Below the pieces are notes generated by a model, which searched no databases, had not been told where the DNA came from, and saw nothing but the letters and a program-made list of their open reading frames with translations. Both the position numbers and the translations under genes were made by a program. From Candidatus Omnitrophota bacterium (GTDB lineage: Bacteria; Omnitrophota; Gorgyraeia; B26-G9; JBDRCZ01), in assembly GCA_043821285.1 (NCBI GenBank), contig JBDRCZ010000019.1, positions 2,234 to 66,233 of the forward strand: a stretch of 64,000 nucleotides of DNA, written 5' to 3'. Positions 9,121 through 31,589 of the stretch are shown one piece after another (position 1 is the stretch's first letter; every line of letters starts with the position of its first letter).

Positions 9121-9314
9121 TGCCACCCGGCAAAGCCTGACCGCAGCGAATAGGCAATTTATTAGCTTCCGGTGCTTCGCACCATCGTCAATTCATCTCT
9201 ATGCCAAAAGCACAGAAATAAATTGGCATTTTCTTAAAAAATCACTTTCGCTTCCAACCACCACAAAGTGTTGGCGGATCTTCGATGTGCCGGGAAATGC
9301 TTTGAATTTCCCAC

Positions 9315-11546: not shown

Positions 11547-11552
11547 TTATCC

Positions 11553-13052
11553 TTATCTTACTGCCTTTTTTTGATTATTAATACCTCGATATACCCACCT
11601 GGCAAAAATTGTATTTTTAATTTCTTTCAATTTATTAATTTCTCCACTTTTATAGAAATGCACAAGCTGTAATGCCCAGGGAAAAAGAGCAACCAGCAAC
11701 AGTTTTATTGCCATGCCAAGAATAGAGAAATCCGGGACAAACAGCCGGCAAATAAGATACCACAATACCGCCAAAACAGTTAATTTGACAATGCGCCCAT
11801 ACTCATAATCAATCGGGTAATATCTCTGGGAAACCTTCAAGGTTATCAAAACTAATACAAGATATGAGAGAAAATTTACCAAAGCTGCCCCGTGCATATT
11901 AAAAACAGGAACGAGCAGCCAATTAAGCAGCAGGTGTAAGACTGCCACACATACCAAAATAATGGCAATACTGTTTGTTTTCTTTTGCAGGTATATCCCA
12001 ATCTGACAGATAAAAAACACGCCGTAACAGATCGTGCCTGATAAAATGAACGGGACAATCTTATAAGCGCTAAAAAATGCCGGCGTTGTCATTAAGGCAA
12101 TTACTTCTTTGATAAAAACCGCGAGAATTAAACCGCTAAATACAAGGACAAAACAAAAATAAGTCAGTACCCGGGCATAAATGTCTCTGGCATTGTCTTT
12201 TTTCATTATGGAAAATCTGTATGGCCCGTAGCCGGCCATAAACGGCTGGATAATCAAAAAACGCAAAATTATCCCAAATCTAAATCCCAGCGAATAAATG
12301 CCGACCGTGGCTAAATCGGTGTAACGGTTCAAAAATATCCGGTCAACAGAATTGAGGACATACATCCCGCAGGAAACAATAATCAACGGCATCCCGTATT
12401 GCATAATACTGCGCAGTTTTTCCAGAGAAAAAGCAAACCGGCAATAATGAAAGGTAACGGCTGTTAAAAAAAGCCAGCTAAACGCGGTCGCCACCAGATT
12501 GCTGATAATAACACCGGTTATCCCCATTTTTAAATAAATCACTAAATATATTGTACAGGTTAGCGCAACAATCAGCCGGCCAACAGATACCCCGACAAAA
12601 AGCACTGATCGCTCTTTTGCCCGGATAAAAGCAAACGGTATCTCAATCGTTGTTTCCAAAAACATCAGCACAAAAACTAATTTAAAAAGTTTGGCATATT
12701 CCGGCGTATTAAAAAATAAATTTGAAAATTTGTCTGAGAATAAAGACAAAATAAACATTGCCACAAACACAAACAATAAACTCGCCAAAGATACTGTGCT
12801 AATCACCTGTTTTTTTTCTTTTTCATTATCATATTCAAAATAATAGCGCAGGGCCGCGGAACTAAGCCCCATCCCCAGAAATATCCCACACATCGTGGAA
12901 ACAATTGACAAAATTTCAATTACTCCATAATCACTAGGCAAAAGGCAACGCGTATACAAAGGAATAAGTAAAAAACCTACCGCGTTTCTCATAATATTAC
13001 CCACGCCATATATTATCGAATGTGTCAATAATTTTCTAAATTCCTTAAACAT
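11553..13052 (-). CDS. Oligosaccharide flippase (Wzx, MOP/polysaccharide biosynthesis protein family)
   Basis: 499 aa with about 12-14 TM segments and Wzx-like organisation. It starts MFKEFRKLLTHSIIYGVGNIMRNAVGFLLIPLYTR. Confidence 0.7.
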   Translation of the reverse strand: MFKEFRKLLTHSIIYGVGNIMRNAVGFLLIPLYTRCLLPSDYGVIEILSIVSTMCGIFLGMGLSSAALRYYFEYDNEKEKKQVISTVSLASLLFVFVAMFILSLFSDKFSNLFFNTPEYAKLFKLVFVLMFLETTIEIPFAFIRAKERSVLFVGVSVGRLIVALTCTIYLVIYLKMGITGVIISNLVATAFSWLFLTAVTFHYCRFAFSLEKLRSIMQYGMPLIIVSCGMYVLNSVDRIFLNRYTDLATVGIYSLGFRFGIILRFLIIQPFMAGYGPYRFSIMKKDNARDIYARVLTYFCFVLVFSGLILAVFIKEVIALMTTPAFFSAYKIVPFILSGTICYGVFFICQIGIYLQKKTNSIAIILVCVAVLHLLLNWLLVPVFNMHGAALVNFLSYLVLVLITLKVSQRYYPIDYEYGRIVKLTVLAVLWYLICRLFVPDFSILGMAIKLLLVALFPWALQLVHFYKSGEINKLKEIKNTIFARWVYRGINNQKKAVR

Positions 13053-13088
13053 CCAGCACCACCGGTCGGGTCAGTTATAAACATGTTC

Positions 13089-14123
13089 CTACTTGCCAAT
13101 AAATTGCGGGAAAATTACCCGTGATTTAAAAGACGGTAAATTATCATGCATAGAAATATGTATTCTATTCAATGCAAAAATATCCAGATTAGATATCTTG
13201 TTTAAATCTCCCATGTTTGTAACGGCAAAATCATATCCAATATCTCTTAGCATGTTTTTTATTTCTTTATTAAAAGACCTTTCATCGCCATTGGGATAAG
13301 AAAAAACATTAATTTTCTTATTAATCTTTTCTTCAATCATATCTTTTGACATAGACATTTCGTAATGAAGTTCCGAATAATCAGCGGTCTTGGTCAAAAT
13401 TTTATGGTTCACCGTATGCGCCCCAAATTCAATCCGGCTATTTTGCAGCATCTCAGTTATCTCCTGCCATGTTACAAAAAGATCCTTTTCTAAATTTTTA
13501 TCTATTACAACTCTTAATTCTTCTTCTGTTTCCTTTACCGCCTTCTTCAACTCTACGTCACTCATGCCTTTTGCGGCTTTAGTAAAATCCTGAATTAGTA
13601 GCTTCTTTGCCTGAAGGTTTTTTAAATTATAAATCTGATCACCTAAACATTTAACTTTTATTTGTTCTTTCTGTGTCTTTTTTATGATATAACTAATCTT
13701 ATCCCACCACGGCAGTTCATCTTTGCCAATATACCCTGTCGTCAAAAAAACTGTCGCCGGTAAATTAAGCTTTCTCAAAATAGGATAGATAACTTCAAAA
13801 ATATCTTTATATCCATCATCAAAAGTTATGATTAAAGGATTCTTGATTTTTTCACCATCTCTATTAAGCATCTGCCTTAATCCCGCAAAAGATATGACAG
13901 AAAAATTATCTTTTATAAAATTCATCTGTCTCTCAAAATTATAACTATCCGCATCAATCAGCCGTTCATCTAAAAAAAACTTGTCTTTTTGTATGTCTAA
14001 CACTCGATGGTATGACAAAATGCGCAGCGTGTTATTATTCATCATTTTTTGTGCCATCAAAAAAACATGGTTATACCCTGAATATTTCAAAATTTTTGCA
14101 AAAAAATCTCTTTTTCTTAACAT
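13089..14123 (-). CDS. Polysaccharide deacetylase (CE4)
   Basis: 344 aa. ITFDDGYKD, HTVNHKIL and the surrounding NodB motifs. Confidence 0.75.
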   Translation of the reverse strand: MLRKRDFFAKILKYSGYNHVFLMAQKMMNNNTLRILSYHRVLDIQKDKFFLDERLIDADSYNFERQMNFIKDNFSVISFAGLRQMLNRDGEKIKNPLIITFDDGYKDIFEVIYPILRKLNLPATVFLTTGYIGKDELPWWDKISYIIKKTQKEQIKVKCLGDQIYNLKNLQAKKLLIQDFTKAAKGMSDVELKKAVKETEEELRVVIDKNLEKDLFVTWQEITEMLQNSRIEFGAHTVNHKILTKTADYSELHYEMSMSKDMIEEKINKKINVFSYPNGDERSFNKEIKNMLRDIGYDFAVTNMGDLNKISNLDIFALNRIHISMHDNLPSFKSRVIFPQFIGK

Positions 14124-14171: not shown

Positions 14172-15347
14172 CTAAGGAAGATAATCCCATATCTTATTCG
14201 TCAACACACAACACTTGGCACATTTTGGAAACAGTTTTTCTCTTTTTAAGATTTTTCTAAAATTTCTGTATTTTGTACTATTCCATATTTTACTAAAAGC
14301 AAGTTCATTAACATTTCCCATCAAAGTATCTATTGAGCAAGGATAAACATTGCCAAAAGGATCAATCCGGCTGGAATACCAGGGATAGAAACATTTTGAC
14401 ACATAAGCATATGAATGATTTGTAAAATATTTCTCCAGCTCATCATTTTTTTCTAAAGCCGGATTAAAAGTGACGTTTATATTATTTTGACGCGCTTTCT
14501 CTTTGCATTCTTTTATCTGTCGGCGCAAAATTTCCGTGTCAACCTTTGTTATATTATCTGATAAAATCTGACTCTCCGGCTTTAAGTGCCCAACCGCGAC
14601 CAATTGATTGGTTTTACTCACCTGTTCTTCATCCGTAAAAAAGACGTATAGAAAATCTAAAAAATGAATATCCAATTTTACCGCCACGTCCACCATTTGA
14701 GAGAGATAATTCTGATTAAGCGCTGAAATCACACAGTTTGCCCATATCTTGGGATATTTACGGCTGTATTTATTTTTTTGTTCATTAATATTTGCGATAC
14801 CTTCGCAAATTTTTGCAAAAGACCTATCCCACCCTCTTATTTCATTATGTACTTCCTCCGGACCATCAATAGAAAAAACCAGCATATCTACCTCAGCTTT
14901 AATCAGCTGCTCGGCAATATCTCTGGTGATCAGCGAACCATTATTTGTTATGCTGCAATAAACTCCTCTTTCTTTGACATATTTAATGATTTCCATAATA
15001 TCTTTTCTCAGGAAAGGTTCTCCGCCGGTTAATGAAACCTTTTTTACTCCCATTTTGCTTAAATCATCAATTATTTTTATTATTTGACTGGTGGTAAGTT
15101 CTTTTTGTCCGGCCCCATACACATCTAATTGCGTACCCGTATCTTTTATTTGATTTTGCCTTTTCCAATTCTCCAGGGGGCACATTTGACACCTTAGATT
15201 ACATAAGTAAGTCAATTCCATATCAACACGCTGGGGGGGGAATGCAAAACCCAATAAAAATCTATAAGGCACCCAGTAATAAGGAATGTCGGCGATTTCT
15301 CTTGTCAGCCCGAATTTTCTTGCTGCCTTTTTAATTATTTTTTTCAT
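14172..15347 (-). CDS. Radical SAM enzyme with a C-terminal SPASM/twitch Cys-rich domain
   Basis: CNLRCQMCP (the CxxxCxxC 4Fe-4S-SAM cluster). A C-terminal CFYPWYSSRIDPFGNVYPCS...PKCAKCC auxiliary-cluster region. The ORF track extends to 15410, but the start is probably the internal MKKIIKKAARKF. Confidence 0.75.
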   Translation of the reverse strand: MKKIIKKAARKFGLTREIADIPYYWVPYRFLLGFAFPPQRVDMELTYLCNLRCQMCPLENWKRQNQIKDTGTQLDVYGAGQKELTTSQIIKIIDDLSKMGVKKVSLTGGEPFLRKDIMEIIKYVKERGVYCSITNNGSLITRDIAEQLIKAEVDMLVFSIDGPEEVHNEIRGWDRSFAKICEGIANINEQKNKYSRKYPKIWANCVISALNQNYLSQMVDVAVKLDIHFLDFLYVFFTDEEQVSKTNQLVAVGHLKPESQILSDNITKVDTEILRRQIKECKEKARQNNINVTFNPALEKNDELEKYFTNHSYAYVSKCFYPWYSSRIDPFGNVYPCSIDTLMGNVNELAFSKIWNSTKYRNFRKILKREKLFPKCAKCCVLTNKIWDYLP

Positions 15348-16419
15348 CGCTGCCCTCCGATAAAATCTTCGTTCTTTTTTCACAAAAAGGGGTGTCTCCC
15401 TTTTCAACATAGTAATTTAATAATTTATTCCAATAATGTTTCTTTCTGATGCCTAAAATCTCTTCATCTACTTGTTGTGCAGCATTTTTGATTAAAAACA
15501 ATGGCAAAAATGCCTTTAGCATTTTAGGCTCAATTCTCATTATCCTGGCATATTTATCAAAAAAACCGTTTACGAGTTTTGAAACCCAGTTTTCCTTAAA
15601 AAAAATAAAATCAAAAGACTTTAGAATATTATCCTCTGTTGTCTGATTATCATTTGCCAGCCTAAAACTGCAAAAAAACATAAACAAATCCCAAAACGCC
15701 AAATCGTTTTTTTGCATATCCGCCCAATCCAGAACACTAATACTACCATCAGAATAGACATGAATATTCTCTGAAAAAAAATCTCCATGGCTGCAACAGA
15801 TCGGAATCTTTTCATTAACCAATCCTAATAAATTTTCTCTGACGTTAAGTAAAAAATGCTCCAGCCAAGGAGTAACTACAACCTTTTTCGAATACTGCTC
15901 AATTATAAAAAAATATTCCTTTTGTATATATTCCTTGGTAAGTTCTACCTCATCTAGTTTAGTCTCTTGTTGAAATCGGCATAACCACTCCACACAACGG
16001 TCGATATCTTTTTTTAACTCATTTCGCCCAAATATATTAGTCTTATTTATCTCTACTGACATTTTACGTCCGCTAACAAAACGTAATATTAAAACCGTAT
16101 TTATATCAATCTTAATACACCCTAGCGGCAAAGGGATACAATTTTTTAAATGCTCAGTTGTTATTATCTCCCGCACATATTTAATATTACAAAATTCCTG
16201 CTCCAGAATACGTGTCTGTCCGGCATCCTGACTCCATTTAGCAAACGCACACGGTTTCTTCCCGTCAAAAACCCAAATGAGTGAACGTATCCATTTATTG
16301 TTGTTTATAAAAAAGGAAAGACGGTCCGGTCTTGGGCGATCATAAAACATTTTATCCCAGTTGGCTAATATGTATTCCTCAAGCTGAGTTACCATTTTTT
16401 TCTCCTTTTCTAGCCACAA
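15331..16419 (-). CDS. Phosphotransferase of the APH/choline-kinase protein-kinase-like family
   Basis: 362 aa. CCSHGDFFSENIHVYSDGSISVLDWADM matches the HGD...N catalytic loop and DW (a DFG-like element) of aminoglycoside/choline kinases. Confidence 0.6.
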   Translation of the reverse strand: MWLEKEKKMVTQLEEYILANWDKMFYDRPRPDRLSFFINNNKWIRSLIWVFDGKKPCAFAKWSQDAGQTRILEQEFCNIKYVREIITTEHLKNCIPLPLGCIKIDINTVLILRFVSGRKMSVEINKTNIFGRNELKKDIDRCVEWLCRFQQETKLDEVELTKEYIQKEYFFIIEQYSKKVVVTPWLEHFLLNVRENLLGLVNEKIPICCSHGDFFSENIHVYSDGSISVLDWADMQKNDLAFWDLFMFFCSFRLANDNQTTEDNILKSFDFIFFKENWVSKLVNGFFDKYARIMRIEPKMLKAFLPLFLIKNAAQQVDEEILGIRKKHYWNKLLNYYVEKGDTPFCEKRTKILSEGSDEKNN

Positions 16420-16903
16420 TACTCAAATCAGGTAAAAATTGCCTGATGAGATAAAAACCGATTCTCATCCTAAACAAAAATTTAAGCATTCTAATCTTTC
16501 TCGAATCGTCACTCTGAACATTTAAATAAAAATGAAACGGTAAAAAGTCATCTAAAGATACAATGTATCTTGGCTCCTTATTGTTTGGCAAACATCCATA
16601 AATATCTATCGTAACAAATCCTGCTTGTTCAAGTATTTTTTTGTATGCCGCAAACGATAGACCTTTACGATTCTTACTATCAATCAGTAAATATCCGCCA
16701 AATTTTAATAGCCGGCTTGCGTTATTGATTAAGGTCTGAAGATTTAAATTGGAAAAATTTTTCTGTTCTCTATTTAAGATAACGATATCGTATCTAAAAT
16801 TTTGATCAAACTTATCATTCGAATCTAACCTTAAGATAGCTGATTTGCTAGCTATCGGCAAAAGCCACTGCAATTTTCTCTCAATTAAGGATAAACGTAT
16901 CAT
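16379..16903 (-). CDS. Small methyltransferase-like protein (post-motif-I part of a class I MTase fold). Function unknown.
   Basis: 174 aa. YDIVILN and LLKFGGYLLID resemble MTase motifs II and III. No GxGxG motif I is present. Confidence 0.3.
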   Translation of the reverse strand: MIRLSLIERKLQWLLPIASKSAILRLDSNDKFDQNFRYDIVILNREQKNFSNLNLQTLINNASRLLKFGGYLLIDSKNRKGLSFAAYKKILEQAGFVTIDIYGCLPNNKEPRYIVSLDDFLPFHFYLNVQSDDSRKIRMLKFLFRMRIGFYLIRQFLPDLSIVARKGEKNGNSA

Positions 16904-18042
16904 CTTATCTGCCCTCCAGACTTCAAAAACCCCCTAACGCTAACGCTGATATTTCTTAATTGATTTAAAAAGTAATAAATGTTTTCTTTATATGTCCATC
17001 TTCTCCTGATTCTGATTGCATAGATTTTTTTATCGGTTGCCGCCCATGCTGTTTTATGGCGCCCTTCGCCCTTAAGAAAATCATATTTTGCAATGCCTTT
17101 ATTTATATAATGCTCAATACACAACGCCCGCAAGATATTTCCTACAGCAATGTTGCCGTTAAAATCCATGTCAAAACCTGATTGATAAAAATATACATTG
17201 TTTTTATAAATAAAATCGTAAGATACCGCCAGAATATTACCATTAAATTCTAAATAACACAGCCGCAACCTATCCCGCTCAAATAATATCTTTATCATTT
17301 TCCTGTGAAAATCCGTAAATTTACTGCTGGCAAAACAACCCTTTTGTCCGGCAGAAAACCATCTTTTTTGATGCAGGGCAATAAGCTTATCAAATATGCA
17401 GCTTAGCTCCTCATATTTTTTCACCTCTTTAAAACTAACCTGTCCTCTTTGTTCTAATTTTTTTCTGTCGCGGTTAATTTTATATCTAAAATTCGAACTT
17501 AATCTTTTCAGCATCTTCCCCCATGAATCAGGCAAATCTATGTAATAGGCACTACCGTCAGGAGCTACCGAATAGCACAGTTTACTGCTTTTGAGTCTAT
17601 CTAAAAGTATCGCCGTGCTTATGTTTTCATCTGATAACTCTTTTAGTACGATCTCCTCCCAGAACTTATTTTCGCTGATATAGTTAATCAGCTTATCGAT
17701 AACTTCGCTTTCTCTGTTTTTTTTAGCGATAATATTCAGATACTCCGAACATATTTCATCCTGCTCATCTTCGCCGCTGGCCAAAAATTCTATTCTTTCA
17801 TATGGCAGCATATTAAAATGTCTTACCTTTCTGCGCAAAAAAGGGGCAATGCCAACAAGTTCCTTTTTATCCCAGAAAGTCAAAATTTCAAGCCCTCTCC
17901 CATCCTGAAAAACTTCCCACCATAAATTAATCCACTCCCAGGTCAAAAAAATAGTATTACTTTGGCTATTTTCAAGCAGTAAATCCCAATTCTGTTTTAT
18001 TTGCTCTAAGCCTTTTATGTTATTAATCACTTTTATCTTCAT
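16900..18042 (-). CDS. FemAB/CelD(BioF2)-like GNAT-fold acyl/aminoacyl transferase
   Basis: 380 aa. It is a paralog of the 21273-22388 product (shared N-terminal pattern W..L...S....F.T.EW...WW). The architecture matches Acetyltransf_6/FemAB. Confidence 0.55.
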   Translation of the reverse strand: MKIKVINNIKGLEQIKQNWDLLLENSQSNTIFLTWEWINLWWEVFQDGRGLEILTFWDKKELVGIAPFLRRKVRHFNMLPYERIEFLASGEDEQDEICSEYLNIIAKKNRESEVIDKLINYISENKFWEEIVLKELSDENISTAILLDRLKSSKLCYSVAPDGSAYYIDLPDSWGKMLKRLSSNFRYKINRDRKKLEQRGQVSFKEVKKYEELSCIFDKLIALHQKRWFSAGQKGCFASSKFTDFHRKMIKILFERDRLRLCYLEFNGNILAVSYDFIYKNNVYFYQSGFDMDFNGNIAVGNILRALCIEHYINKGIAKYDFLKGEGRHKTAWAATDKKIYAIRIRRRWTYKENIYYFLNQLRNISVSVRGFLKSGGQIR

Positions 18043-19154
18043 TAGTTACAACTCTGCCTGCCCCAGACCGTTCCTTCCATAAGCAACCGTGCGGTTCTGC
18101 TGATTAATGCGCTTATTAAAGTAAATTTATCATTATCCATTGTGTAATTAATCTTTGTTTCAATAATACCTGAAGGGTGAACTATGGTAATATTTTCTAA
18201 CGGCTTCTTTATCTCTATATTGAACGCGTCAGCCACGGTGCCGTTGAGGCAAAGTAAACATCCGGTATTTATCGCTCCGGTAATTGCATATGCTTTATGG
18301 ATACGGCCATTGCTGAATATCCTTGCCTGGATATCTGCATTTTGATTATCCGCTTCACTAATTATAGAAATTTTTGGTATTATTGTCTTGTGGAATCTAC
18401 GGCTTAACATTTCTGTAACTCTATTTTTTAATTTATTCAATTTACTCATAAATTCTATATTTTTTTCCAAATCTTGCGGGACATCCCCCCCATCAATACC
18501 TAAATCTTCTGCCTTTACAAAAGCATAAACATTTCCCGCATCTATTATTGTCGCCCGGAAATGGTGTTTACCACAGGTAAGATCTTCACTTACTTTTCCG
18601 GTAGGAAACAATTTACCCGTAATCATTCCGCCCGGCTGCATAAATTCCAACCTAATTTCCGGCCCGGTACCCGGCACGCCATCAATGTGAAAACTACCAT
18701 CTGTCGCAGGCAGTCCATTTGATAAAGGCACTGTCGAAATAATAAATTTATTTGTATTTGTGTTTAACATTCTAACTACTGCTGATTTTCCCGAAACACT
18801 CACATATTTGTGATAAACTGCATATATGGCCGCTCCGGCAGCAAGATTACCGCACATTGCGTTATAGTCAATTGTATTATCCTCTATAGCCACCTGTCCA
18901 AATGTGTATTCAATATCCACATCATCTCTTGGTGAAAGGCTGATAATTGCGAGTTTACTTGTTAAAGGGTCCGCTCCACCTAACCCGTCTATTTGCCGCG
19001 GATCCGGACTGCCAAAAACAGATAAGATAATCTTATTTCTTTCCTGTGCATTTTCCGGGAGGTCTTGTTTAAGGATAAAGATACCTTTACTTGTACCACC
19101 CCTGATGATAGAACAGGGTATTTTTTTATCTTCATAACTTACCTGCTTTAACAT
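18042..19154 (-). CDS. PrpF/AcnD-accessory (DUF453) family isomerase
   Basis: 370 aa. The N-terminus KIPCSIIRGGTSKGIFIL matches the PrpF signature (IPxxxMRGGTSKG). Confidence 0.65.
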   Translation of the reverse strand: MLKQVSYEDKKIPCSIIRGGTSKGIFILKQDLPENAQERNKIILSVFGSPDPRQIDGLGGADPLTSKLAIISLSPRDDVDIEYTFGQVAIEDNTIDYNAMCGNLAAGAAIYAVYHKYVSVSGKSAVVRMLNTNTNKFIISTVPLSNGLPATDGSFHIDGVPGTGPEIRLEFMQPGGMITGKLFPTGKVSEDLTCGKHHFRATIIDAGNVYAFVKAEDLGIDGGDVPQDLEKNIEFMSKLNKLKNRVTEMLSRRFHKTIIPKISIISEADNQNADIQARIFSNGRIHKAYAITGAINTGCLLCLNGTVADAFNIEIKKPLENITIVHPSGIIETKINYTMDNDKFTLISALISRTARLLMEGTVWGRQSCN

Positions 19155-20458
19155 TGTTTTCTCCGTAACATAAGTTTCAATAAAAAATTTAGTCTATTTA
19201 AAATTGCCAACTTCATTTTCAAATACCACAACTTAATAAAAGGGGTTAAGTCATCAAAAGACAAAACCGCGAAAGTTTTCTTTCCGGCGAATATCTTTAA
19301 CCAATTACCTAATGTCAACTTTCTCTTTTTTATCAAATGCCGTGCCATATCAAACTCTTTATCCAGGTATATCCAGGTAACGTTTTCTTTAAATAACGGC
19401 ATTTTAGTTTTACGATCATAAGCCCCCAGCATATCTAAATAACAAATATATGGGAGATTTACACCCGCAGCAGAAGCAAGTCCGACAGTCTGTACTGGTC
19501 TAGCATTTATTTCAATCAGTTTATACCTATTATCTATAGCATCTAATTTGAATTCGACACCAGCAATACCTTTATAATGCAATGACCTAAGCAGGCGATT
19601 AGCCAATTCTTTAACCACAGGTATATTCTCACTTTTAGTTAAACAACAATATCCAAAACCCATTGGATATTGTCTTAGTTTTTTTCTTATACAATATGCT
19701 AATAATTCGGACGTTCGGTTATAATAACATAAAAATGTTATATTACGCTCTACTTCCCCCTGAATTACATTCTGAACCATAATATTACGGTCAAGTTTTG
19801 ATATTTCTTTATATCGCTTGATTAATTCATCCCTGTCTTTAACCATAACGGCCTTACCCCATTTCAGTTCTGTCTCGATCAAAGGCTTCCGCCAAGAATG
19901 TGCAATAATCGGTTTTATTACCGATGGATAATCAATATTTTTCCCCAGATCAATAACATCTGCATAATGTTGCGGAAAAAAGGTCTCGGGGATATCGACT
20001 TGCGCCAAAACAGCAATTTCGTATTGCCTTTTTTTATTTAAAATATTACTGATAACCTCTCTTTCCGGCAAAGGAATTTCATAAAATTTCCTTAAGACCT
20101 CCTGATACTTATTAATAAACCCTAAACATTCATCACTCGCAGGAAACATCACGCCTTTTTTTTTACACCTCTTTCCATAATTGATGATGAATGATAATAA
20201 CTCTTCCTCTTTATCCAGATTGGGACATTCCATGTGCATACAATACCTGGAAGATAACCCAAAGTCTAACTTATTTGGATGAAACCTAATAACCGGGACA
20301 CCTTCCCTGCCCAAATCACGTGATAGGCTTAAAGCGATAATATTAATCTCCGGATACTTTGGATTAGACCGCGGATCGTGCGAGAGTATAAAAACCGGCG
20401 ATTTATTTGCACTATTTAACAAATCATATTTATTATTTATCGTAGCCGTTTTTTTCAT
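19148..20458 (-). CDS. ATP-grasp domain ligase
   Basis: 436 aa. GIAGVEFKLDAIDNRYKLIEINARP is the ATP-grasp catalytic loop (E-x-N). Confidence 0.65.
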   Translation of the reverse strand: MKKTATINNKYDLLNSANKSPVFILSHDPRSNPKYPEINIIALSLSRDLGREGVPVIRFHPNKLDFGLSSRYCMHMECPNLDKEEELLSFIINYGKRCKKKGVMFPASDECLGFINKYQEVLRKFYEIPLPEREVISNILNKKRQYEIAVLAQVDIPETFFPQHYADVIDLGKNIDYPSVIKPIIAHSWRKPLIETELKWGKAVMVKDRDELIKRYKEISKLDRNIMVQNVIQGEVERNITFLCYYNRTSELLAYCIRKKLRQYPMGFGYCCLTKSENIPVVKELANRLLRSLHYKGIAGVEFKLDAIDNRYKLIEINARPVQTVGLASAAGVNLPYICYLDMLGAYDRKTKMPLFKENVTWIYLDKEFDMARHLIKKRKLTLGNWLKIFAGKKTFAVLSFDDLTPFIKLWYLKMKLAILNRLNFLLKLMLRRKQC

Positions 20459-20515
20459 ATCAGGTTGCTATTTTTAATCTTATTTTTTGTCTTTAAATTT
20501 ACGTAAAATTTTAAT

Positions 20516-21193
20516 TCAATAATCAAAATTCTTCATTAATCTTTCAGGATGAAAATTAAATATTTTAATTCCTAAGAATCTTAAATAAAAAATACACCCG
20601 ATTTTCCTGAATCCTATTTTTGTATATATCTTTTGTGAAACATGATTTGACGGAACAATGTGGCACATAATAAATGCTCTGCCTTGAGCCTTTAGCATTT
20701 TCATCGATTCATTTATCATATACAGTGCAATTTTTTTACCACGGTAATCCGGATGAATAAATGTATCATAAATAAACACTAAATTGGGGGGAACTGATAT
20801 ATTCATTAGGTACTCTTTAAAATATGTTTTGTGCAATGCTATTTTCAAAAAACCTATAATTTTATTATTATGCGTAACATTCAAAAAATAATGATTATTT
20901 TGCCGGGCAGTCCTTATCTCCTTTGTTTCTTCACAATAGAAAATCCCATTGTGTAAATTATCTTTTTCCCATTTTAATGTCTCTTCTATAGAGTGATAAT
21001 TAATATCTACAGTGATATTGGGAATTATCTCTACAGATGATTCTGATAACTTCCTGACATACCAGTAAGACGTATGCCATCCAAAAAGCACCTTCCTTGT
21101 TTTTTTAAATACTCTATATAACAAAACACCAAGTCCGCCGGTTTTGTAAGCACGTACTATCTTTTCTTTAATGTTTAGATCTTTATCGTTCAT
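20516..21193 (-). CDS. GNAT family N-acetyltransferase
   Basis: 225 aa. FIHPDYRGKKIALYMINESMKMLKAQG is the GNAT motif A (R/Q-x-x-G-x-G/A). Confidence 0.55.
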   Translation of the reverse strand: MNDKDLNIKEKIVRAYKTGGLGVLLYRVFKKTRKVLFGWHTSYWYVRKLSESSVEIIPNITVDINYHSIEETLKWEKDNLHNGIFYCEETKEIRTARQNNHYFLNVTHNNKIIGFLKIALHKTYFKEYLMNISVPPNLVFIYDTFIHPDYRGKKIALYMINESMKMLKAQGRAFIMCHIVPSNHVSQKIYTKIGFRKIGCIFYLRFLGIKIFNFHPERLMKNFDY

Positions 21194-21272
21194 TTATATA
21201 TATACCATAATCGTCACTTGCGTTGACTTAAAATATCATTCATCTGTGCTGTTCTAATTTCAATCTGTTTTG

Positions 21273-22388
21273 TTACCTCAGTTCCCCCCGCCGGTATCGC
21301 ATTAACTTTTGTTTTTTAATATTAGTGATAACCTTGTATTCCAAAAAAGCTAATATTTTGCCATAACCACTGTTGCCAAAAAAATAACAGTAACAATGTT
21401 TCCTTACTAAAGATGTCCATCGCAGCTTATAGCGGTCCTTGTCGCCTAATAAATCATATTCATTAGCATTATTATCAAAACTATTTTTTATCACAAAAGT
21501 ATCAAGTAATACGCTCGGAGATAAACGGTAATATTTCTCATCAAAACCTGTCTTGAGCGAATAAATATTTTTTTTATAACGCAAACTGAATTCAAAAGCA
21601 ATCGGCCGGCCATTAATCTTTAATATCCAAATGTTCAAATACCCTTTCGATGACATGGCCTCAGCCAATAATCTATAAAAATTCAAGTCATTTGAATTGC
21701 TGGCAATCGCCGTATTTTTTTTGTATTTCCAGGTTTTCTCTGATACAGACATTAAATCTTTCATGCCTTCCGAAACATTATCTTTTACATACAGTATAAT
21801 TTCGTACCTGCCATAACGCCCTACTATATTCCTAACATGCCTCATGCTTTTTCGGAATGTTCTTGAGCGGGTCATTAGATAATCGTCCCAGTTTCTATCT
21901 ATTGAAATATAAGGGGATAAGATGCTTTGTTTTCTCTTGAATTTAAAATTATCTTCCTGCAGAGCTTCGAGCAAAAACTTGTCGGTTAAACACTCCTCCG
22001 GGATATAATCAAAAAAAATCATATCAAATTTAGCATTTGAATTTATGATATATTGCAATAAATGCCGGACGGCTTCATTTCCTTTCTTAATTATCACAAA
22101 TCCCACCCTGTTTGAATGGTCATTGCATATCAGGGTAATTGCCCTTACGGGAAGACCCCGGAATTTTATCATTTTTTTCATCAATGGGGCAATCGCGATA
22201 ATTTCACCACCCTGCTTAACGAGGATAATAAACATTTCATTTTTATCACCATAACACTTCCACCAGCAGGAAAACCATTCAAAGGTCATGAACGGTATGT
22301 CCATATCGCTCTGCGCCAGTAAATCATTCCATACTGATTCAAACTTAAGAAATTTATCAAATTTATCGATAACTTCTATCTGCATCAT
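21273..22388 (-). CDS. FemAB/CelD-like GNAT-fold transferase (paralog of 16900-18042)
   Basis: 371 aa, similar in length and N-terminal motifs to the 16900-18042 product. Confidence 0.55.
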   Translation of the reverse strand: MMQIEVIDKFDKFLKFESVWNDLLAQSDMDIPFMTFEWFSCWWKCYGDKNEMFIILVKQGGEIIAIAPLMKKMIKFRGLPVRAITLICNDHSNRVGFVIIKKGNEAVRHLLQYIINSNAKFDMIFFDYIPEECLTDKFLLEALQEDNFKFKRKQSILSPYISIDRNWDDYLMTRSRTFRKSMRHVRNIVGRYGRYEIILYVKDNVSEGMKDLMSVSEKTWKYKKNTAIASNSNDLNFYRLLAEAMSSKGYLNIWILKINGRPIAFEFSLRYKKNIYSLKTGFDEKYYRLSPSVLLDTFVIKNSFDNNANEYDLLGDKDRYKLRWTSLVRKHCYCYFFGNSGYGKILAFLEYKVITNIKKQKLMRYRRGELR

Positions 22389-22397
22389 AATATCAAT

Positions 22398-23567
22398 TCA
22401 CCCGGATATGTATTTTCTTTTGTATCTTTTTGTATAGTCAACTATTTTTCGCTTTATTGCCTGGGGTATCGTCGGATTTCTTTGTGCGCCTAGGATACAC
22501 TGCTGGCAAATTTTTACTTGTTTATTTTTTATGGCCCTAAGAAAATCACGATGCCTCTTATTTTCCCATATTTTGCTAATCGACATCTCGCAGATATTTC
22601 CTAGATGATAATTTTGAAAAAATAAGCATGGCAAAACATTGCCGCTGGGGTCAATCGTAATATGATACCTTGAAATATAGCAGCGCTCATGCTGACAAGA
22701 GCCTTTAACCAAATCTTGTACACGAAAACAGTCAATATTATCTGTATCCAAATATATTTTCTCTCTATATTTCCTTTCTAATTCATCTATTTTTGTTTTT
22801 AAATAACGCGCCTGTTTTTCATTGAGAAGTAAACTATCATTTTGTCTTTGATAATACGGATTTGCTACAATATCTGCCACTTTTGACTGCTGGATAAGTT
22901 CCGGAGAAAATTCACCGTAATATTCAAAATGTAACTGATCCGCTCCCAAATCAATGGCATACGGTAAAAGCTCGTCAAACTTATCAATATTCAAGTTAGA
23001 CACGGTGCAATAAATACTAATTGAAGGATACGCACGCTTCCCTTTTATCCTAACCATCTCTTTTAATCCCTGCGTAGCTCTTTCAAAAATACCTTTTACT
23101 CCCCGGATATTATCATGTCTTTCTCCTACTGCATCAATGGAAACTCCGATATTATCCGCACCGGTTTCGACCAATTCTTTAGCTATTTCTTTAGTCAATA
23201 AATTACCATTGCTTGTAATATCGCAACTAATGCCTTTGCACTTGATATATTTTGCCAGGGGAAATAGTATTTCTTTTTTTAATAAGACATCTCCGCCAAA
23301 AAGATAAATCAGACCAATTTTAAGTTCCGCAAGCATGTCCACCGCTTTCTTCCATTCGGTTAAATCCATTTCTCGATAATCATACGGCCTCTTCCACATC
23401 TGACACATCTTACAGCGGGAGGAACACCGATAAGTTAAAAAAAATAATGCCTCACGAGGCTTAATCTGATAATAAGCAGCCTCTCTCTTGCCTAACCAGA
23501 TGATAAAATCAAAAAAATCTCTGATTACATTAGTCGTAAGTTTGAACCCGTTAAATATCTTTTTCAT
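22398..23567 (-). CDS. Radical SAM enzyme with SPASM-type C-terminal Cys cluster
   Basis: CSSRCKMCQMW (CxxxCxxC) and a C-terminal CQQC. The ORF track extends to 23804, but the upstream 79 codons run through a repeat element. The start is taken at MKKIFNGF. Confidence 0.75.
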   Translation of the reverse strand: MKKIFNGFKLTTNVIRDFFDFIIWLGKREAAYYQIKPREALFFLTYRCSSRCKMCQMWKRPYDYREMDLTEWKKAVDMLAELKIGLIYLFGGDVLLKKEILFPLAKYIKCKGISCDITSNGNLLTKEIAKELVETGADNIGVSIDAVGERHDNIRGVKGIFERATQGLKEMVRIKGKRAYPSISIYCTVSNLNIDKFDELLPYAIDLGADQLHFEYYGEFSPELIQQSKVADIVANPYYQRQNDSLLLNEKQARYLKTKIDELERKYREKIYLDTDNIDCFRVQDLVKGSCQHERCYISRYHITIDPSGNVLPCLFFQNYHLGNICEMSISKIWENKRHRDFLRAIKNKQVKICQQCILGAQRNPTIPQAIKRKIVDYTKRYKRKYISG

Positions 23568-23625
23568 AATTATGTTAAACGCCCCGCCACAGACTCTTTG
23601 GCAGGGGAGCATAACCCCTACATTT

Positions 23626-23777
23626 AAACCTGAGTATTCCCTGTAGCAAGCTATAGGGTAAAAAGTTTTTGTTTTTTGCGAAATTGTCGAAGATCCGCCG
23701 TGGCGGGGCGAAGACAATTTCGCTTGCAGTTGTCGGAGGCAACTGACCGGAAAATGATTGCATTTTTCGTGTATGAA
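23626..23777. repeat. Copy 1 of a ~150-bp structured intergenic repeat. It is the inverted partner of 58778-58930.
   Basis: It is about 90% identical to the reverse complement of 58778-58930. It contains hairpins GAAAATGattgCATTTTC, CAGTTGtcggaggCAACTG and a long one, GCGAAATTGTCGAAGATCCGCC-gtgg-CGGGGCGAAGACAATTTCGC. Confidence 0.7.
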
Positions 23778-23813
23778 CCCCCCTTGATAGCAGAGTGGCT
23801 GCATTTAACATTC

Positions 23814-24587
23814 TCAATAAATTCCAATTTTATTTAAACTTTTTTTAAACGGCAAAAACACATTTTCTCTCAATCTTCTCTTTAACCCATTTTTGTACCG
23901 GCTTAAAATATTTGACGGTTCTTCTTCCTCTGAAATCGGATAGGAATAATTACAAACAATAGCCTTAAACTTATCTTTTAGGCAACCGATAAAATCCGCA
24001 AATTCTTCTCTGGTTTCAGAAACGTAATCCGGTGAATATGCTATGTAAATATATTCCGGGATAGTGCGGCAATTATATGACAAAAAATCTTTTATACTTT
24101 TTTGCCGCTGTTGTTTTGTTTTATTCTTTAAAGCAAAAAAATCCCAGTCAATATCCAGATGTTCACCTTCTTCAAGTTCTATGGCCGGTGAATACAATAT
24201 TTCTGTGTATTTCAACGGATAGTTTTTTGCCGGCGAGAAAAACGTTTTTATCCGATAAGGAACCGCCGTCAAATCCGAGGTATATTTTACATGCGTCATA
24301 TCCTTATCCCGTCCGCCATAATGGTCATGTAACCACTTTATTTCTTTTATTATTCCATCCCGCACGGCAAGACTGATAAAATTACCGCAGTCGACTGTTT
24401 TTAATTCCGGCAAAATATACACAACTTCTCTGCTTTTGTTAACAAGCAGATGATGCATGTCACAGTGTGTATCCAAATGCAATATCTTAATGTTTTGAAA
24501 ACCTAATTTGCGCCAGAGGAAAAGTAATTCATGGTGATGCTCAACAATATAAATTACGGGTTTAATCTTCATCTTAGCAGTCATCAC
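23814..24587 (-). CDS. Hypothetical protein with His-rich motifs (VEHHHELL, HLDTHCDMHH); possibly a metal-dependent hydrolase
   Basis: 257-aa ORF. I recognise no confident family. Confidence 0.35.
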   Translation of the reverse strand: MMTAKMKIKPVIYIVEHHHELLFLWRKLGFQNIKILHLDTHCDMHHLLVNKSREVVYILPELKTVDCGNFISLAVRDGIIKEIKWLHDHYGGRDKDMTHVKYTSDLTAVPYRIKTFFSPAKNYPLKYTEILYSPAIELEEGEHLDIDWDFFALKNKTKQQRQKSIKDFLSYNCRTIPEYIYIAYSPDYVSETREEFADFIGCLKDKFKAIVCNYSYPISEEEEPSNILSRYKNGLKRRLRENVFLPFKKSLNKIGIY

Positions 24588-24617: not shown

Positions 24618-26033
24618 TCAACTCTCCAATCTCCTAAAATCATCATTAACCCTTTCAATATCATCCTCTTCGAGGCAACTTCCGCTCTGTACTTCCACGA
24701 TTTTCAATATTTTGTCTTTTGGATTTTCCAGCCGGTGAAGTTGCTTAGCGGAGACAAAAATGCTTTCATTACTATGTATGAAACTTACCTTTTTACCACA
24801 GGTTACCCTGGCTACCCCTTCAACAACAACCCAGTGTTCACTGCGAAATTTATGCCGCTGCAGGCTCAGACGTTTATGCGGCATTACCTCGATAAGCTTA
24901 ACCTTAAAACCCCGGCCGTGACTAATTACCAAATAATTCCCCCACGGCCGCTTTACTTTCAAGTGAGAAAAATGTTCAGATCCGCCGCTTTTTTTTACCA
25001 GTTCAACCATCTTTTTTACGTCTTCAGTTTTATCTTTATTACAGATTAAAATCGCATCATTTGTATCAACAATAATCAAATCCCGCAAGGCAATGGTTGA
25101 AATCAGCTTATTATCTCCAAAAACCGTAACATTCTTACTGCCTAAATCTATACAATTTGCCTGAATTAGATTACCCTGGCTATTTTTCTGATATAGTTCA
25201 TCAATGGCCAGCCAGGAACCTAAATCACTCCAGCCAATATTACCGGCGGTCACGATAACAGAAGAATTTGATTTTTCCAGTACTCCGTAATCTATAGATA
25301 TCGGAGAAAGTTTTGTCCACTTATGCTCAAATATATTTTTTTGGTCCAGTGTTTCTATACACCCATACAAGTCTGGCAAAAATTTTCTGATTTCTGCTAA
25401 AATTATCCCGGCCTTCCAGATAAACATGCCACTATTCCAGAAATATCTACCGGTCTTTAAAAACTTTCGCGCAAGCTGCGGATCCGGTTTTTCTTTAAAC
25501 TCACCTACCTGATAAGTGTTTTTTAACCCGGCGATCTTATCTCCTTTTTTAATATAACCATATCCAGTAGAAGGTGACTTTGGCTTTATACCCAAAGTCA
25601 CTAAAAAATTATTTCCTGCTGCCCGCAGTGCACTTTTTACAAGTTTTGTGAATTTACCGGTCATTTTCACGGCATGATCTGAAGGCAATACTATGATTAT
25701 TGCCTCGGGATTATCCCTGGCAATTATCTTTGCCGAAAGAGCAATCGCGCCGGCAGTATTTTTTCCTGAAGGCTCAAATATGATATTATCCTTGGAAATC
25801 CCAAAAACAGAAATCTGTTCTTCTAACTCAAATTTGTGCAGCCTATTTGCTACAATATATATCTTTGATAAATTAACTATAGATAAAATCCGTTTTATCG
25901 TCTGCTGGAGTAATGACTGATTATTGTACAGCTTTAAAAATTGTTTCGGCTCAAGTTCCCGGCTAAGCGGCCAAAACCTGCTGCCTACCCCCCCGGCTAA
26001 TATTACCGCGTATATGTGTTTTTTATTAATCAT
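24618..26033 (-). CDS. manC: Mannose-1-phosphate guanylyltransferase / mannose-6-phosphate isomerase (bifunctional type II PMI-GMP)
   Basis: 471 aa. The N-terminus AVILAGGVGSRFWPLSRELEPKQFL is a nucleotidyl-transferase motif. The C-terminus has a cupin domain with RPWGNYLVI...HKRLSLQRHKFRSEHWVVVEGVA. Confidence 0.85.
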   Translation of the reverse strand: MINKKHIYAVILAGGVGSRFWPLSRELEPKQFLKLYNNQSLLQQTIKRILSIVNLSKIYIVANRLHKFELEEQISVFGISKDNIIFEPSGKNTAGAIALSAKIIARDNPEAIIIVLPSDHAVKMTGKFTKLVKSALRAAGNNFLVTLGIKPKSPSTGYGYIKKGDKIAGLKNTYQVGEFKEKPDPQLARKFLKTGRYFWNSGMFIWKAGIILAEIRKFLPDLYGCIETLDQKNIFEHKWTKLSPISIDYGVLEKSNSSVIVTAGNIGWSDLGSWLAIDELYQKNSQGNLIQANCIDLGSKNVTVFGDNKLISTIALRDLIIVDTNDAILICNKDKTEDVKKMVELVKKSGGSEHFSHLKVKRPWGNYLVISHGRGFKVKLIEVMPHKRLSLQRHKFRSEHWVVVEGVARVTCGKKVSFIHSNESIFVSAKQLHRLENPKDKILKIVEVQSGSCLEEDDIERVNDDFRRLES

Positions 26034-26494
26034 ATCCAGCTCTCATGAATCTTCCCGGTTGTGCCAAAACTATCCGCATGTTTTTCTAATCAACCACAGA
26101 CTTTCACAGATTATTATTTTTTTAGCTACGGATTTACACGGATGTAGCACGGATTTTTTAAATAAAAAATTTTCTTCTGCTTGATCATCTCTCCTCCACA
26201 ATGCATTGGCGGATCTTTGATGTAGCAAAAAAACTACAGGGCATTATGCCAAGCTGATAAGGCAATGCAACACCGGAATTTTTTTATCTATTCGTAAAAA
26301 TTGGTGTCCTTCGATAGAATTTATCCTGAGAACAATCGAAGGACTCAGGACTTTTCTTAACACTGAGCGAAGTCGAAGTGTGTTATTCGTGGTGTAAATG
26401 TTTTTACCCTCGTATGTTATCCGTGTTCAATCAGTGTCAATCCGTGGCTTTATTGTTTTAAGGCCAAGTATCTATACCATCCGTGCGATTTTTT

Positions 26495-27790: not shown

Positions 27791-27965
27791 TATTTCATCC
27801 TTTCATTAATAAAAAAATTCCTTCCCGCCGATTATTTCAGTAAACAAGACCATAGGATATTGCACCGGCTCTATGATGTCCCTGATCACCAGAATTTTTT
27901 TATCCATTTGAAAACCTGCGGTTTTCAGACTTTAAATGACCCGCCAAAAAACATGGCGGGGAATT
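27791..27965 (-). promoter_or_regulatory. Copy C of the promoter/leader module, including the palindrome TTGAAAACCtgcgGGTTTTCAG and ending in AAGGAATTTTTTTATTAATG at the dehydrogenase start
   Basis: Direct sequence comparison with 8987-9120 and 33001-33165. Confidence 0.5.
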
Positions 27966-28018
27966 TAACAATGTCCATTCCCCCCGGTAAACACATAGGG
28001 AACAGGCACGTTTAAAGC

Positions 28019-31546: not shown

Positions 31547-31589
31547 ACCTCCTCGTTAAATGATTGGTTCTGTCAAAAGTATCCGCATA

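Follow-up and report, generated by a model that had tools for sequence, protein, structure and literature searches.

We analysed a 64,000-nucleotide stretch of contig JBDRCZ010000019.1 from a metagenome-assembled genome of a Candidatus Omnitrophota bacterium (assembly GCA_043821285.1; hereafter the window, whose coordinates are used throughout) and focused on nine consecutive genes at 23567-14172 that lie inside an exopolysaccharide (EPS) locus of the Wzx/Wzy type. In transcription order, they encode a radical S-adenosylmethionine (SAM) enzyme (rSAM1), an Acetyltransf_6 protein ('a'), a GNAT N-acetyltransferase, an ATP-grasp ligase, a PrpF-family isomerase, a second Acetyltransf_6 protein ('b'), a 174-residue methyltransferase-like open reading frame (ORF), an APH-like protein, and a second radical-SAM enzyme (rSAM2). 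An earlier reading made from the DNA letters alone (the sequence-only reading) had described this gene order, these coordinates, and the embedding in an EPS locus with its flanks, all of which we recovered. It had also taken the nine genes for one unit bracketed by two equivalent SPASM enzymes, a view that we do not retain: the block is a mosaic of three separately recurring modules, not one indivisible cassette. Module 1 comprises UPF0489, rSAM1, Acetyltransf_6 'a', and the GNAT; module 2, the ATP-grasp, PrpF, and Acetyltransf_6 'b', usually with a SAM methyltransferase; and module 3, Acetyltransf_6 'b', rSAM2, and a CE4 de-N-acetylase ('c'). As a whole, the system is made up of known enzyme superfamilies and constitutes the tailoring part of an EPS locus of the Wzx/Wzy type.

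Genomic setting of the block

All the genes of the locus given here are on the minus strand. Transcription runs from the export genes Wza (30424-31158), Wzz/GNVR (29062-30342), and BY-kinase (28019-28825) through a nucleotide-sugar 6-dehydrogenase of the UDP-HexNAc/Hex type (HexNAc, N-acetylhexosamine; 26495-27790; 449 bits to the NDP-sugar dehydrogenase family), ManC (24618-26033), and the UPF0489 arginase-fold protein (257 residues, 23814-24587) into the nine genes, and from there to CE4 'c' (13089-14123), Wzx (11553-13052), and Wzy (10215-11546). The UPF0489 and CE4 'c' genes lie just outside the region singled out by the sequence-only reading. Wzy is followed by a methyltransferase, two family 4 glycosyltransferases (GT4), an epimerase-GFO fusion, a methyltransferase, a CE4, a GT4, and a CE4. 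There are three CE4 genes in the window, and not four as had been counted, and two intact methyltransferases elsewhere in the locus. The G+C content of the region is 32-41%, with no sharp step at the block. NCBI has entries of 100% identity for the PrpF, the ATP-grasp, and the two radical-SAM proteins.

Within the block, neighbouring genes overlap by 1-17 nt or are separated by gaps of 9-79 nt, and we found no convincing internal terminator. Given this tight spacing and the lack of credible terminators, co-transcription as one operon, which had been proposed from the overlaps, fits the data. In NCBIfam, the families that Wza, Wzz, BY-kinase, and Wzy match best are those of the XrtA/PEP-CTERM system, with scores that are all below the cut-offs (116 versus 180, 268 versus 279, 164 versus 231, and 148 versus 188). 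No exosortase gene was found within the 64-kb window.

Recurrence of the three modules

The search of metagenomes with an alignment of 10 ATP-grasp sequences resulted in 80 further loci (loci are designated below by L numbers), and a profile scan of genome contigs with the ATP-grasp alignment gave one locus only, on an Omnitrophota chromosome without PrpF. Every related locus that we recovered is a Wzx/Wzy-type EPS locus, one of them (L093) beside an exosortase. Recurrence outside polysaccharide loci, which the sequence-only reading had named as something that would refute it, was not seen for any related block in this comparison of gene neighbourhoods.

With an ATP-grasp that shares at least 37% identity with that of the window, 22 of 30 loci also carry PrpF, as do 13 of the 15 that are in addition well flanked (at least 3 kb on both sides), at a distance of 9-1504 nt. 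When the ATP-grasp is more distant, PrpF occurs in 1 of 55 loci (1 of 17 with good flanks). The 21 nonredundant PrpF loci have an Acetyltransf_6 gene within 3 kb of PrpF in 15 cases and a methyltransferase in 14. Since the G+C content of the related loci ranges from 30% to 71%, this linkage extends over large phylogenetic distances. Nor is the clustering due to chance, because sub-blocks recur syntenically in independent loci (parts of the modules are found, e.g., in L004 and L005). For the mining of such loci, an ATP-grasp with at least 37% identity adjoining PrpF can serve as a marker.

Module 1 is best preserved in L008, where all four genes keep their order and the UPF0489 ortholog lies directly upstream of that of rSAM1. 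The identities are 55% for UPF0489 (55-58% across comparisons), 59% for rSAM1, 48% for Acetyltransf_6 'a', and 52% for the GNAT; an Acetyltransf_6 and an ATP-grasp gene follow beyond this run. L009 and L010 carry a radical-SAM gene (40% identity to rSAM1), a GNAT, and an Acetyltransf_6, then a CE4-GT4 fusion, a glycosyltransferase, and Wzy. The GNAT ortholog of L009 (22%) comes directly after the rSAM1 ortholog and precedes that of Acetyltransf_6 'a' (30%), while in L001 (37% for the GNAT, 36% for Acetyltransf_6 'a') and L008 it comes after the latter. The closest relative of rSAM2 is in L011 (45%), next to Wzy, and another is in L094, where the order within a Wzx/Wzy locus is DegT, Acetyltransf_6, CE4, radical-SAM, GT4 (by Pfam families only). 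Each of the two radical-SAM genes is accompanied by an Acetyltransf_6 gene of its own.

The orthologs of Acetyltransf_6 'b' tie module 2 to module 3. They adjoin PrpF in L013 and in L022/23/26/27/48, and they adjoin orthologs of CE4 'c' in L004, L005, and L037/47/54/58; a further ortholog is found in L008 (34%). The last four loci of the CE4 group have more distant ATP-grasp genes and show the order Acetyltransf_6 'b', CE4 'c', Wzy, Wzx, and ATP-grasp, with other genes around Wzy and Wzx; no Wzx was detected in L058, unlike L037, L047, and L054. CE4 'c' (Polysacc_deac_1 at 85 bits in Pfam, with a PgaB-like N-terminus) is therefore a likely partner of module 3. The arrangement of module 2 varies. 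In L001, the closest sister locus, and its near-duplicate L002, Acetyltransf_6, GNAT, and ATP-grasp are followed by an ORF without known family, PrpF, GT4/CE4, and Wzx. L005 has the ATP-grasp, a methyltransferase, and PrpF beside Wza/GNVR, with Acetyltransf_6 and CE4 further along. L093 has GNVR, a kinase, Bac_transf, CE4/DUF3473, and the exosortase genes EpsH/EpsI, then PrpF, a methyltransferase, Acetyltransf_6, ATP-grasp, and another Acetyltransf_6. The ORF without known family (L001 8554-9972; L002 3395-4813) encodes a 472-residue protein between ATP-grasp and PrpF, which has a membrane helix at its N-terminus and matches no Pfam family. By eye only, its C-terminal LLWAGYG motif recalls nitroreductase/SagB-type domains; it is absent from the window.

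Several of these genes are fused. In L013 (approximately 11270-13260, metagenome contig Ga0137401_10000039) and L014 (metagenome contig WNFR01012256.1), a single ORF joins the SAM methyltransferase to PrpF and adjoins the ATP-grasp and Acetyltransf_6 genes; by this Rosetta-stone evidence, methyltransferase and PrpF would act in one pathway. CE4-GT4 fusions occur in L001, L003, and L009, and an ATP-grasp-glycosyltransferase fusion in L003 (L001 11137-13362; L003 7968-9950 and 9947-11998; L009 13113-15356). These sister-locus fusions suggest that deacetylation and ligation take place on the nascent lipid-linked repeat unit.

Enzyme families of the block

Searches with the hidden Markov models of Pfam and NCBIfam reproduced the family assignments made by the sequence-only reading, with qualifications for the SPASM domain, the APH-like protein, and the 174-residue ORF. 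Both radical-SAM proteins match the Radical_SAM family (PF04055) at 78 bits and the SPASM family at 52 bits for rSAM1 (22398-23567, 389 residues from the NCBI start) and 55 bits for rSAM2 (14172-15347). The CX3CX2C motif (YRCSSRCKMC in rSAM1, YLCNLRCQMC in rSAM2) is nearly invariant in the rSAM1 family alignment and invariant in that of rSAM2. The SPASM subfamily is defined by a seven- or eight-cysteine C-terminal motif and two auxiliary Fe-S clusters. Despite their Pfam matches, neither protein has this motif: the homologues of rSAM1 share four invariant C-terminal cysteines only, CX17C...CX2C, and those of rSAM2 the same four and one that is nearly invariant. The SPASM domain binds two auxiliary clusters and its truncated version, the twitch domain, binds one; this definition and the reaction of BtrN are described in PMC9012708. 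Because there are four auxiliary cysteines and the C-terminal domains match BtrN best in the PDB, rSAM1 and rSAM2 are predicted to be BtrN-type, one-cluster twitch enzymes. The earlier call of two SPASM enzymes thus stands at the level of the Pfam family and fails at that of the auxiliary cysteine motif.

The best PDB sequence match of rSAM1 is the twitch domain of BtrN, with a further match to BlsE, and rSAM2 matches PqqE, BlsE, and BtrN. The best NCBIfam matches of the two enzymes (AhbD, NirJ, and a tungsten-cofactor maturase) are all far below the cut-offs. The structural model of rSAM1 (predicted local distance difference test, pLDDT, of 88) has a single long helix at its N-terminus and no recognition element (RRE) of the kind used by maturases of RiPPs (peptides that are made by the ribosome and modified after translation). 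A fold search confirmed its fold, with matches that are spread over SkfB, SuiB, BlsE (best TM-score), CteB, PqqE, anSME, DesII, and viperin.

The PrpF protein (18042-19154) matches the Pfam family PrpF (PF04303) at 317 bits over residues 10-364. Its full-length homologues in the PDB are the 3-methylitaconate isomerase Mii (3g7k), YbhH (6otv), LigU (6p3j), and SoPrpF (2pvz), with E-values of 2e-64 to 1e-50; the best of these, to Mii, reaches 202 bits over 237 residues in the N-terminal domain. The 24 sequences that span the columns of K67 (LTSKLAII), C101 (MCGN), and H286 (the window and 23 loci) all keep these residues. PrpF-family chemistry begins with the abstraction of the proton next to a carboxylate, and in SoPrpF the substitution of either K73 or C107, both functional residues and the counterparts of K67 and C101, abolishes growth on propionate (PMC5690661). 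Since it is a full-length member of the family with the catalytic lysine and cysteine conserved, the window's PrpF is probably active, as an allylic isomerase whose substrate is an unsaturated di- or tricarboxylate. Its scores are below both NCBIfam equivalog cut-offs (4-oxalomesaconate tautomerase, 311 versus 440 bits; 2-methylaconitate isomerase PrpF, 215 versus 441 bits). The four top PrpF matches with readable context (P0002, P0005, P0008, and P0037) are all in EPS loci, three of them distinct, as P0002 and P0005 come from the near-duplicates L001 and L002.

The ATP-grasp ligase (19148-20458) is of the COG3919 or 'D-aspartate ligase'-like type, the latter being the name given to its homologues by JGI, and it matches ATPgrasp_Ter (PF15632) at 35 bits for a cut-off of 29. 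Its profile relatives are CPSase, Ddl, cyanophycin synthetase, and RimK. Its structural model (pLDDT of 93) matches biotin carboxylase, L-amino-acid ligases, and PurK at a probability of 1.0. Model and profiles together indicate a relative of carboxylate-amine ligases and carboxylases. The fold search confirmed the fold and did not narrow the class of substrate, and a single-sequence search of the PDB matched no solved structure.

The two Acetyltransf_6 proteins, 'a' (21273-22388; PF13480 at 77 bits) and 'b' (16900-18042; 93 bits), are double-GNAT members of the Fem/CelD clan, and 'a' would be a FemAB/CelD-like N-acyl or aminoacyl transferase. FemAB (PF02388) matches 'a' with an E-value of 0.007. 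The single-sequence PDB search with 'a' gave nothing, and the family profile retrieved FemA alone, with a nonsignificant E-value of 0.49. The nearest curated NCBIfam family is the acyl-CoA-dependent crotonyl/acetyl-transferase BspF, a weak match of 30-38 bits. The smaller GNAT (20516-21193, 225 residues) matches Acetyltransf_1 in Pfam at 49 bits. The UPF0489 protein matches its Pfam family at 30 bits and the NCBIfam peptide-arginase family (FlmR/OhkR/OspR) at 32.5 bits, for a cut-off of 350. The metal motifs DxHxD (LDTHCD) and DxD (DIDWD) are kept between it and its ortholog in L008; a single-sequence PDB search with it found nothing.

The two remaining proteins are less typical of their families. 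The APH/choline-kinase-fold protein (15331-16395, 354 residues from the annotated start) scores 21.5 bits with Pfam APH (PF01636), just under the cut-off of 23.2. The earlier assignment is nevertheless supported by the motifs HGDxxxxN (HGDFFSEN) and DW (LDWAD) and by its homologues, of which there are 652 at E <= 1e-3: among the top 30, 24 match APH, with a best E-value of 9e-13. Fusions also occur among the 30 aligned homologues, to a CE4 domain in two and to a Wzx-type flippase domain in one; the fused proteins (P0370, P0377, P0380, and P0399) are 748-906 residues long. The 174-residue ORF (16379-16903) has no match in Pfam or NCBIfam. As the sequence-only reading had proposed, it resembles a truncated methyltransferase: it aligns at 32% identity with the C-terminal half of a Trm112-zinc-ribbon and SAM methyltransferase of full length, which lies between Wzy and Wzx in L054. 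At the position of motif I, it has ILRLDSNDKF in place of VLDLGAGTG, and this degenerate remnant is probably inactive. We also considered whether it is a relic of the methyltransferase of module 2, and rejected this because a model built from the module methyltransferases gave a nonsignificant E-value of 0.13.

Intergenic repeats, precursor peptides, and neighbouring features

The gap between UPF0489 and rSAM1 (23568-23813, minus strand) is a dispersed intergenic repeat of 246 nt, with a G+C content above that of its surroundings and a predicted fold with a minimum free energy of -81 kcal/mol (z = -4.7). A second copy lies inverted at approximately 58778-58930, with a core of around 150 nt at approximately 92% identity. 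One internal hairpin differs between the copies yet pairs in both (CAGTTG..CAACTG versus CATCCGCC..GGCGGATG). A riboswitch or leader was rejected for this gap given the lack of a match in Rfam and the inverted copy elsewhere in the window. The rSAM1 ORF can be extended to 23804, with a Cys-rich N-terminal extension that might be taken for a fused precursor peptide. This extension is the translated repeat, and the start in NCBI and in all homologues is the ATG downstream of it; the longer ORF is an artefact of reading through the repeat.

No precursor-peptide ORF was found in the gaps of the block, in agreement with the sequence-only reading: the 9-79 nt gaps contain no small ORF and the 246-nt gap is a noncoding repeat. 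Two small called genes of L008 (6540-6818 and 9036-9227), which we considered as precursors, are N-terminal fragments of an Acetyltransf_6 gene and of a CE4 gene, and indicate decay or rearrangement inside such cassettes. Neither of the features that mark radical-SAM maturases of RiPPs, an RRE and an adjacent precursor gene, is present.

Short repeats of 30-130 nt and several families are confined to the intergenic gaps of the EPS locus and beyond, e.g., at 6571-6686, 9217-9286, 26192-26221, 26410-26460, 27802-27968, 29033-29062, 31164-31224, 31548-31714, 33009-33141, 42557-42606, and 42958-43025. Among them are GC-rich hairpins of the type GACCCGCCA...TGGCGGG and, at 28982-28997, the perfect palindrome TGCCTGCCGGCAGGCA. 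The repeats resemble REP/MITE-like elements (repetitive extragenic palindromes or miniature inverted-repeat transposable elements) or shared regulatory sites.

Directly upstream of the EPS locus is a class A RNase P RNA (32224-32594, minus strand, 198 bits), which shares its 5' 80 nt with the 3' end of an RNase H-like ORF (32515-33000, minus strand). Past it lie two tRNA genes (33983-34056 and 34133-34205, both on the minus strand). These genes stand between the main EPS locus and a second, small pair of Wzy_C and family 2 glycosyltransferase (GT2) genes at 34407-36738. Further away, a 1069-residue protein (50808-54017, minus strand) combines an alpha/beta-hydrolase, a CheR-type methyltransferase, and many TPR repeats. 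It adjoins a TPR protein, a methyl-accepting chemotaxis protein, and several response regulators, in an unusual chemotaxis-type architecture.

A proposed role in the remodelling of amino-sugar N-substituents

The enzyme families, the conservation of catalytic residues, the linkage and fusion of genes, and the EPS context are the observations from which we infer the substrates and products that the block may handle. The CE4, the Acetyltransf_6, and the amide-forming ATP-grasp are constant across loci, which points to a cycle in which acetyl groups are removed and other groups added. We therefore propose that the block forms a composite region for tailoring within an XrtA-like Wzx/Wzy EPS locus and remodels the N-substituents of amino sugars in the repeat unit. 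In its general form, this scheme has in our judgement an even chance of being right; our confidence in any single step is much lower.

In this scheme, the CE4 enzymes, often fused in the sister loci to a GT4 that presumably adds HexNAc, would strip N-acetyl groups from HexNAc or HexNAc-uronate residues and leave free amines. The two Acetyltransf_6 double-GNATs would re-acylate these amines with a group other than acetate, taken from an aminoacyl-tRNA (as in Fem proteins) or from a short acyl-CoA (as in BspF), and the small GNAT might cap the resulting free amine. PrpF, which is closest to the isomerases of 3-methylitaconate, oxalomesaconate, and aconitate, would provide an unsaturated di- or tricarboxylic acid as the double-bond isomer that is needed. 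The ATP-grasp, tightly linked to it, would join this carboxylate to an amine through an amide bond. A SAM methyltransferase is the normal companion of the ATP-grasp/PrpF pair, the adjacent copy in the window being degenerate; it could methyl-esterify the remaining carboxylate or methylate the sugar. The radical-SAM enzymes could carry out an oxygen-independent two-electron oxidation, an epimerisation, or a decarboxylation, on the sugar or on the new substituent, while UPF0489 might hydrolyse a guanidino or amide group and the APH-fold kinase phosphorylate a hydroxyl. The product would be an EPS heavily decorated with N-acyl or peptidyl groups and partly methylated and phosphorylated. The sequence-only reading had suggested the decoration of a sugar with amino acids or peptides. 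This is reasonable in view of the precedent in Clostridium difficile discussed below, and as a whole that reading is partly supported.

Several observations weigh against this scheme. For all of these subfamilies, the chemistry is derived from family membership and gene linkage. Most of the loci were fetched with the ATP-grasp as bait, so its presence there is by construction. The window's PrpF is 30-39% identical to most EPS-linked PrpF proteins versus 40-46% to proteins named methylitaconate isomerases in databases, and no gene of the window is a clear ortholog of the methyltransferase of the module. The signals for the donor of the Acetyltransf_6 proteins are weak either way (E-value of 0.49 for FemA versus 30-38 bits for BspF), and the fold search with rSAM1 cannot tell relatives acting on sugars from those acting on peptides. 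Finally, the ATP-grasp could equally activate the carboxylate of a uronic acid on the sugar.

This last point leads to a competing explanation, in which the block tailors uronic acids. The ATP-grasp would amidate the C6 of a uronate with an amine or an amino acid, the PrpF-fold enzyme would epimerise C5 or shift a 4,5 double bond, and the radical-SAM enzyme would act like BlsE, as a uronate decarboxylase or oxidase. The glucuronamide ligase of Campylobacter jejuni HS:2 amidates a uronate at C6. The window has a nucleotide-sugar dehydrogenase, which would make the uronic acids, and dehydrogenases lie 1-7 kb from the ATP-grasp in L005, L012, L068, L069, L071, L078, and L088; these enzymes are common in EPS loci, however, and never adjacent to the ATP-grasp here. 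Both radical-SAM enzymes have BlsE, a cytosylglucuronate decarboxylase, among their best matches by sequence and fold. PrpF-family chemistry, which starts at the proton next to a carboxylate (PMC5690661), would also suit a uronate, but a pocket for small acids is favoured by the strong resemblance of the N-terminal domain to isomerases of such acids (202 bits to Mii). Uronate tailoring leaves the conserved CE4 and Acetyltransf_6 partners without a role, and we consider it unlikely.

We think it quite unlikely that the genes build a peptide stem or anchor. Fem-type transferases using aminoacyl-tRNA would then, with the ATP-grasp, make a glycan-borne peptide in which the arginase-fold protein turns arginine into ornithine, the radical-SAM enzyme introduces, e.g., an L-to-D change, and the GNAT adds a cap. 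In relatives with an exosortase, this peptide could be the nucleophile for PEP-CTERM proteins, comparable to FemXAB and sortase. The placement of Acetyltransf_6 in the Fem/GNAT clan, with its weak FemAB and FemA matches, is compatible with this, as are the synteny of UPF0489, radical-SAM, Acetyltransf_6, and GNAT in L008 and the C. difficile peptidylamido glycan. The triad of ATP-grasp, PrpF, and Acetyltransf_6 lies directly beside EpsH/EpsI in L093, and the export genes of the window match XrtA-system families best, but the window itself lacks an exosortase. UPF0489, with its intact metal motifs, is the family of the RiPP peptide arginases, yet the protein scores 32 bits for a cut-off of 350. 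The best curated match of the Acetyltransf_6 proteins is the acyl-CoA-dependent BspF, and PrpF is left without a role.

A fuller version of this idea, which we regard as similarly doubtful, would give PrpF a place. The stem would be built on de-N-acetylated EPS sugars and tailored by arginine-to-ornithine conversion and radical-SAM epimerisation or oxidation, and the ATP-grasp would cap it with a dicarboxylate that is isomerised by PrpF and then methyl-esterified, an enzymology otherwise known from RiPPs and peptidoglycan. If true, it would define a previously unrecognised 'peptidyl/acyl-amido' class of EPS, widespread in uncultured anaerobes, and the stem could be the attachment point of PEP-CTERM proteins in the exosortase-bearing relatives.

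The alternative named by the sequence-only reading, in which the EPS locus merely houses a small-molecule or RiPP-like pathway, is highly improbable: the SPASM matches, the fold similarity to the RiPP maturases SkfB, SuiB, and CteB, the peptide-arginase-family protein, and the occurrence of ATP-grasp and GNAT pairs in small-molecule clusters speak for it, but the radical-SAM enzymes are BtrN-like with only four auxiliary cysteines and no RRE, precursor ORFs are absent from the gaps of the block and are gene fragments in L008, the block has no transporter, protease, or regulator of its own, and all the related blocks were recovered among Wzx, Wzy, glycosyltransferase, and CE4 genes, to which they are often fused (GT4-CE4, ATP-grasp-glycosyltransferase, APH-CE4, and APH-Wzx).

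The remodelling of amino-sugar N-substituents is, if correct, of broader interest. The chemistry of EPS and capsules is known almost entirely from cultured pathogens. Here, Wzx/Wzy EPS loci share a conserved gene set of PrpF, a specific ATP-grasp clade, and a FemAB-like transferase, usually with a methyltransferase and frequently with a one-cluster radical-SAM enzyme. We found no described polysaccharide substituent or pathway that accounts for the PrpF/ATP-grasp/FemAB-like set, and full-text literature searches on PrpF, methylitaconate, or radical SAM/SPASM in connection with polysaccharides, EPS, or exosortases gave no description of it; the sequence-only reading had likewise recognised no described pathway. 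Its view that PrpF and radical-SAM enzymes are nonstandard in such loci is correct with respect to characterised capsule and O-antigen pathways, but among uncultured bacteria they recur in EPS loci. The association between ATP-grasp, PrpF, and Acetyltransf_6, being both broad and tight, implies an unrecognised and common glycan substituent. If so, these genes mark a class of sugar decoration that is common among environmental and anaerobic bacteria, which would bear on the properties of biofilm and floc matrices and possibly on the attachment of proteins to EPS by exosortases, and the PrpF family would gain its first biosynthetic, glycan-linked role.

Comparison with known systems

The individual enzymes have characterised relatives that work in other settings. 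The PrpF of the window is homologous over its full length to Mii, LigU, SoPrpF, and YbhH and shares their catalytic lysine and cysteine. It differs from them in its context, EPS biosynthesis and not the catabolism of propionate, nicotinate, or lignin, in the linkage of EPS PrpF genes to ATP-grasp and their linkage or fusion to a methyltransferase, and in scores below the equivalog cut-offs. The radical-SAM enzymes share the CX3CX2C motif and the single four-cysteine auxiliary motif with BtrN, the 2-deoxy-scyllo-inosamine dehydrogenase that is the best C-terminal match in the PDB, and a twitch domain with BlsE, which gave the best TM-score for rSAM1. Both relatives act on carbohydrate-type substrates, and the identity to them is only 14-19%. 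The ATP-grasp can be likened, by annotation name and by logic, to Aslfm, the D-aspartate ligase of Enterococcus faecium (COG3919), whose JGI name its homologues share. Aslfm belongs to a scheme in which a sugar-linked precursor receives, on an amine, a dicarboxylic acid that the ATP-grasp attaches and whose source is a neighbouring isomerase or racemase. In the window, the partner is a PrpF-fold isomerase and not an aspartate racemase, and the polymer is EPS and not peptidoglycan.

At the level of the locus, the closest match is with the XrtA/PEP-CTERM EPS loci, whose hallmark genes encode a FemAB-family protein (TIGR03019) and a CE4/DUF3473 deacetylase (TIGR03006). The window shares with them the best matches of Wza, Wzz, BY-kinase, and Wzy and the pairing of Acetyltransf_6 with CE4, and the sister locus L093 carries EpsH/EpsI beside PrpF, methyltransferase, Acetyltransf_6, and ATP-grasp. 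The window is not itself assigned to this system: its scores are all below the curated cut-offs, it has no exosortase, and its Acetyltransf_6 proteins do not match TIGR03019. To our knowledge, PrpF, ATP-grasp, twitch radical-SAM enzymes, UPF0489, and APH-like kinases are not part of the described XrtA system.

The other comparison, by gene content, is with the type B flagellin glycan locus of C. difficile, a Firmicute system of protein O-glycosylation without PrpF, radical-SAM, CE4, or UPF0489, in which the amine comes from an aminotransferase and not from de-N-acetylation. There, the genes CDR20291_0244-0247 encode a FemAB-like protein, an ATP-grasp, an ornithine cyclodeaminase, and FdtB and lead to a sulfonated peptidylamido sugar, for which the ATP-grasp is required (PMC5207246). 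This glycan locus, where a FemAB-type transferase neighbours an ATP-grasp ligase, is by analogy the closest experimental precedent for the block described here.

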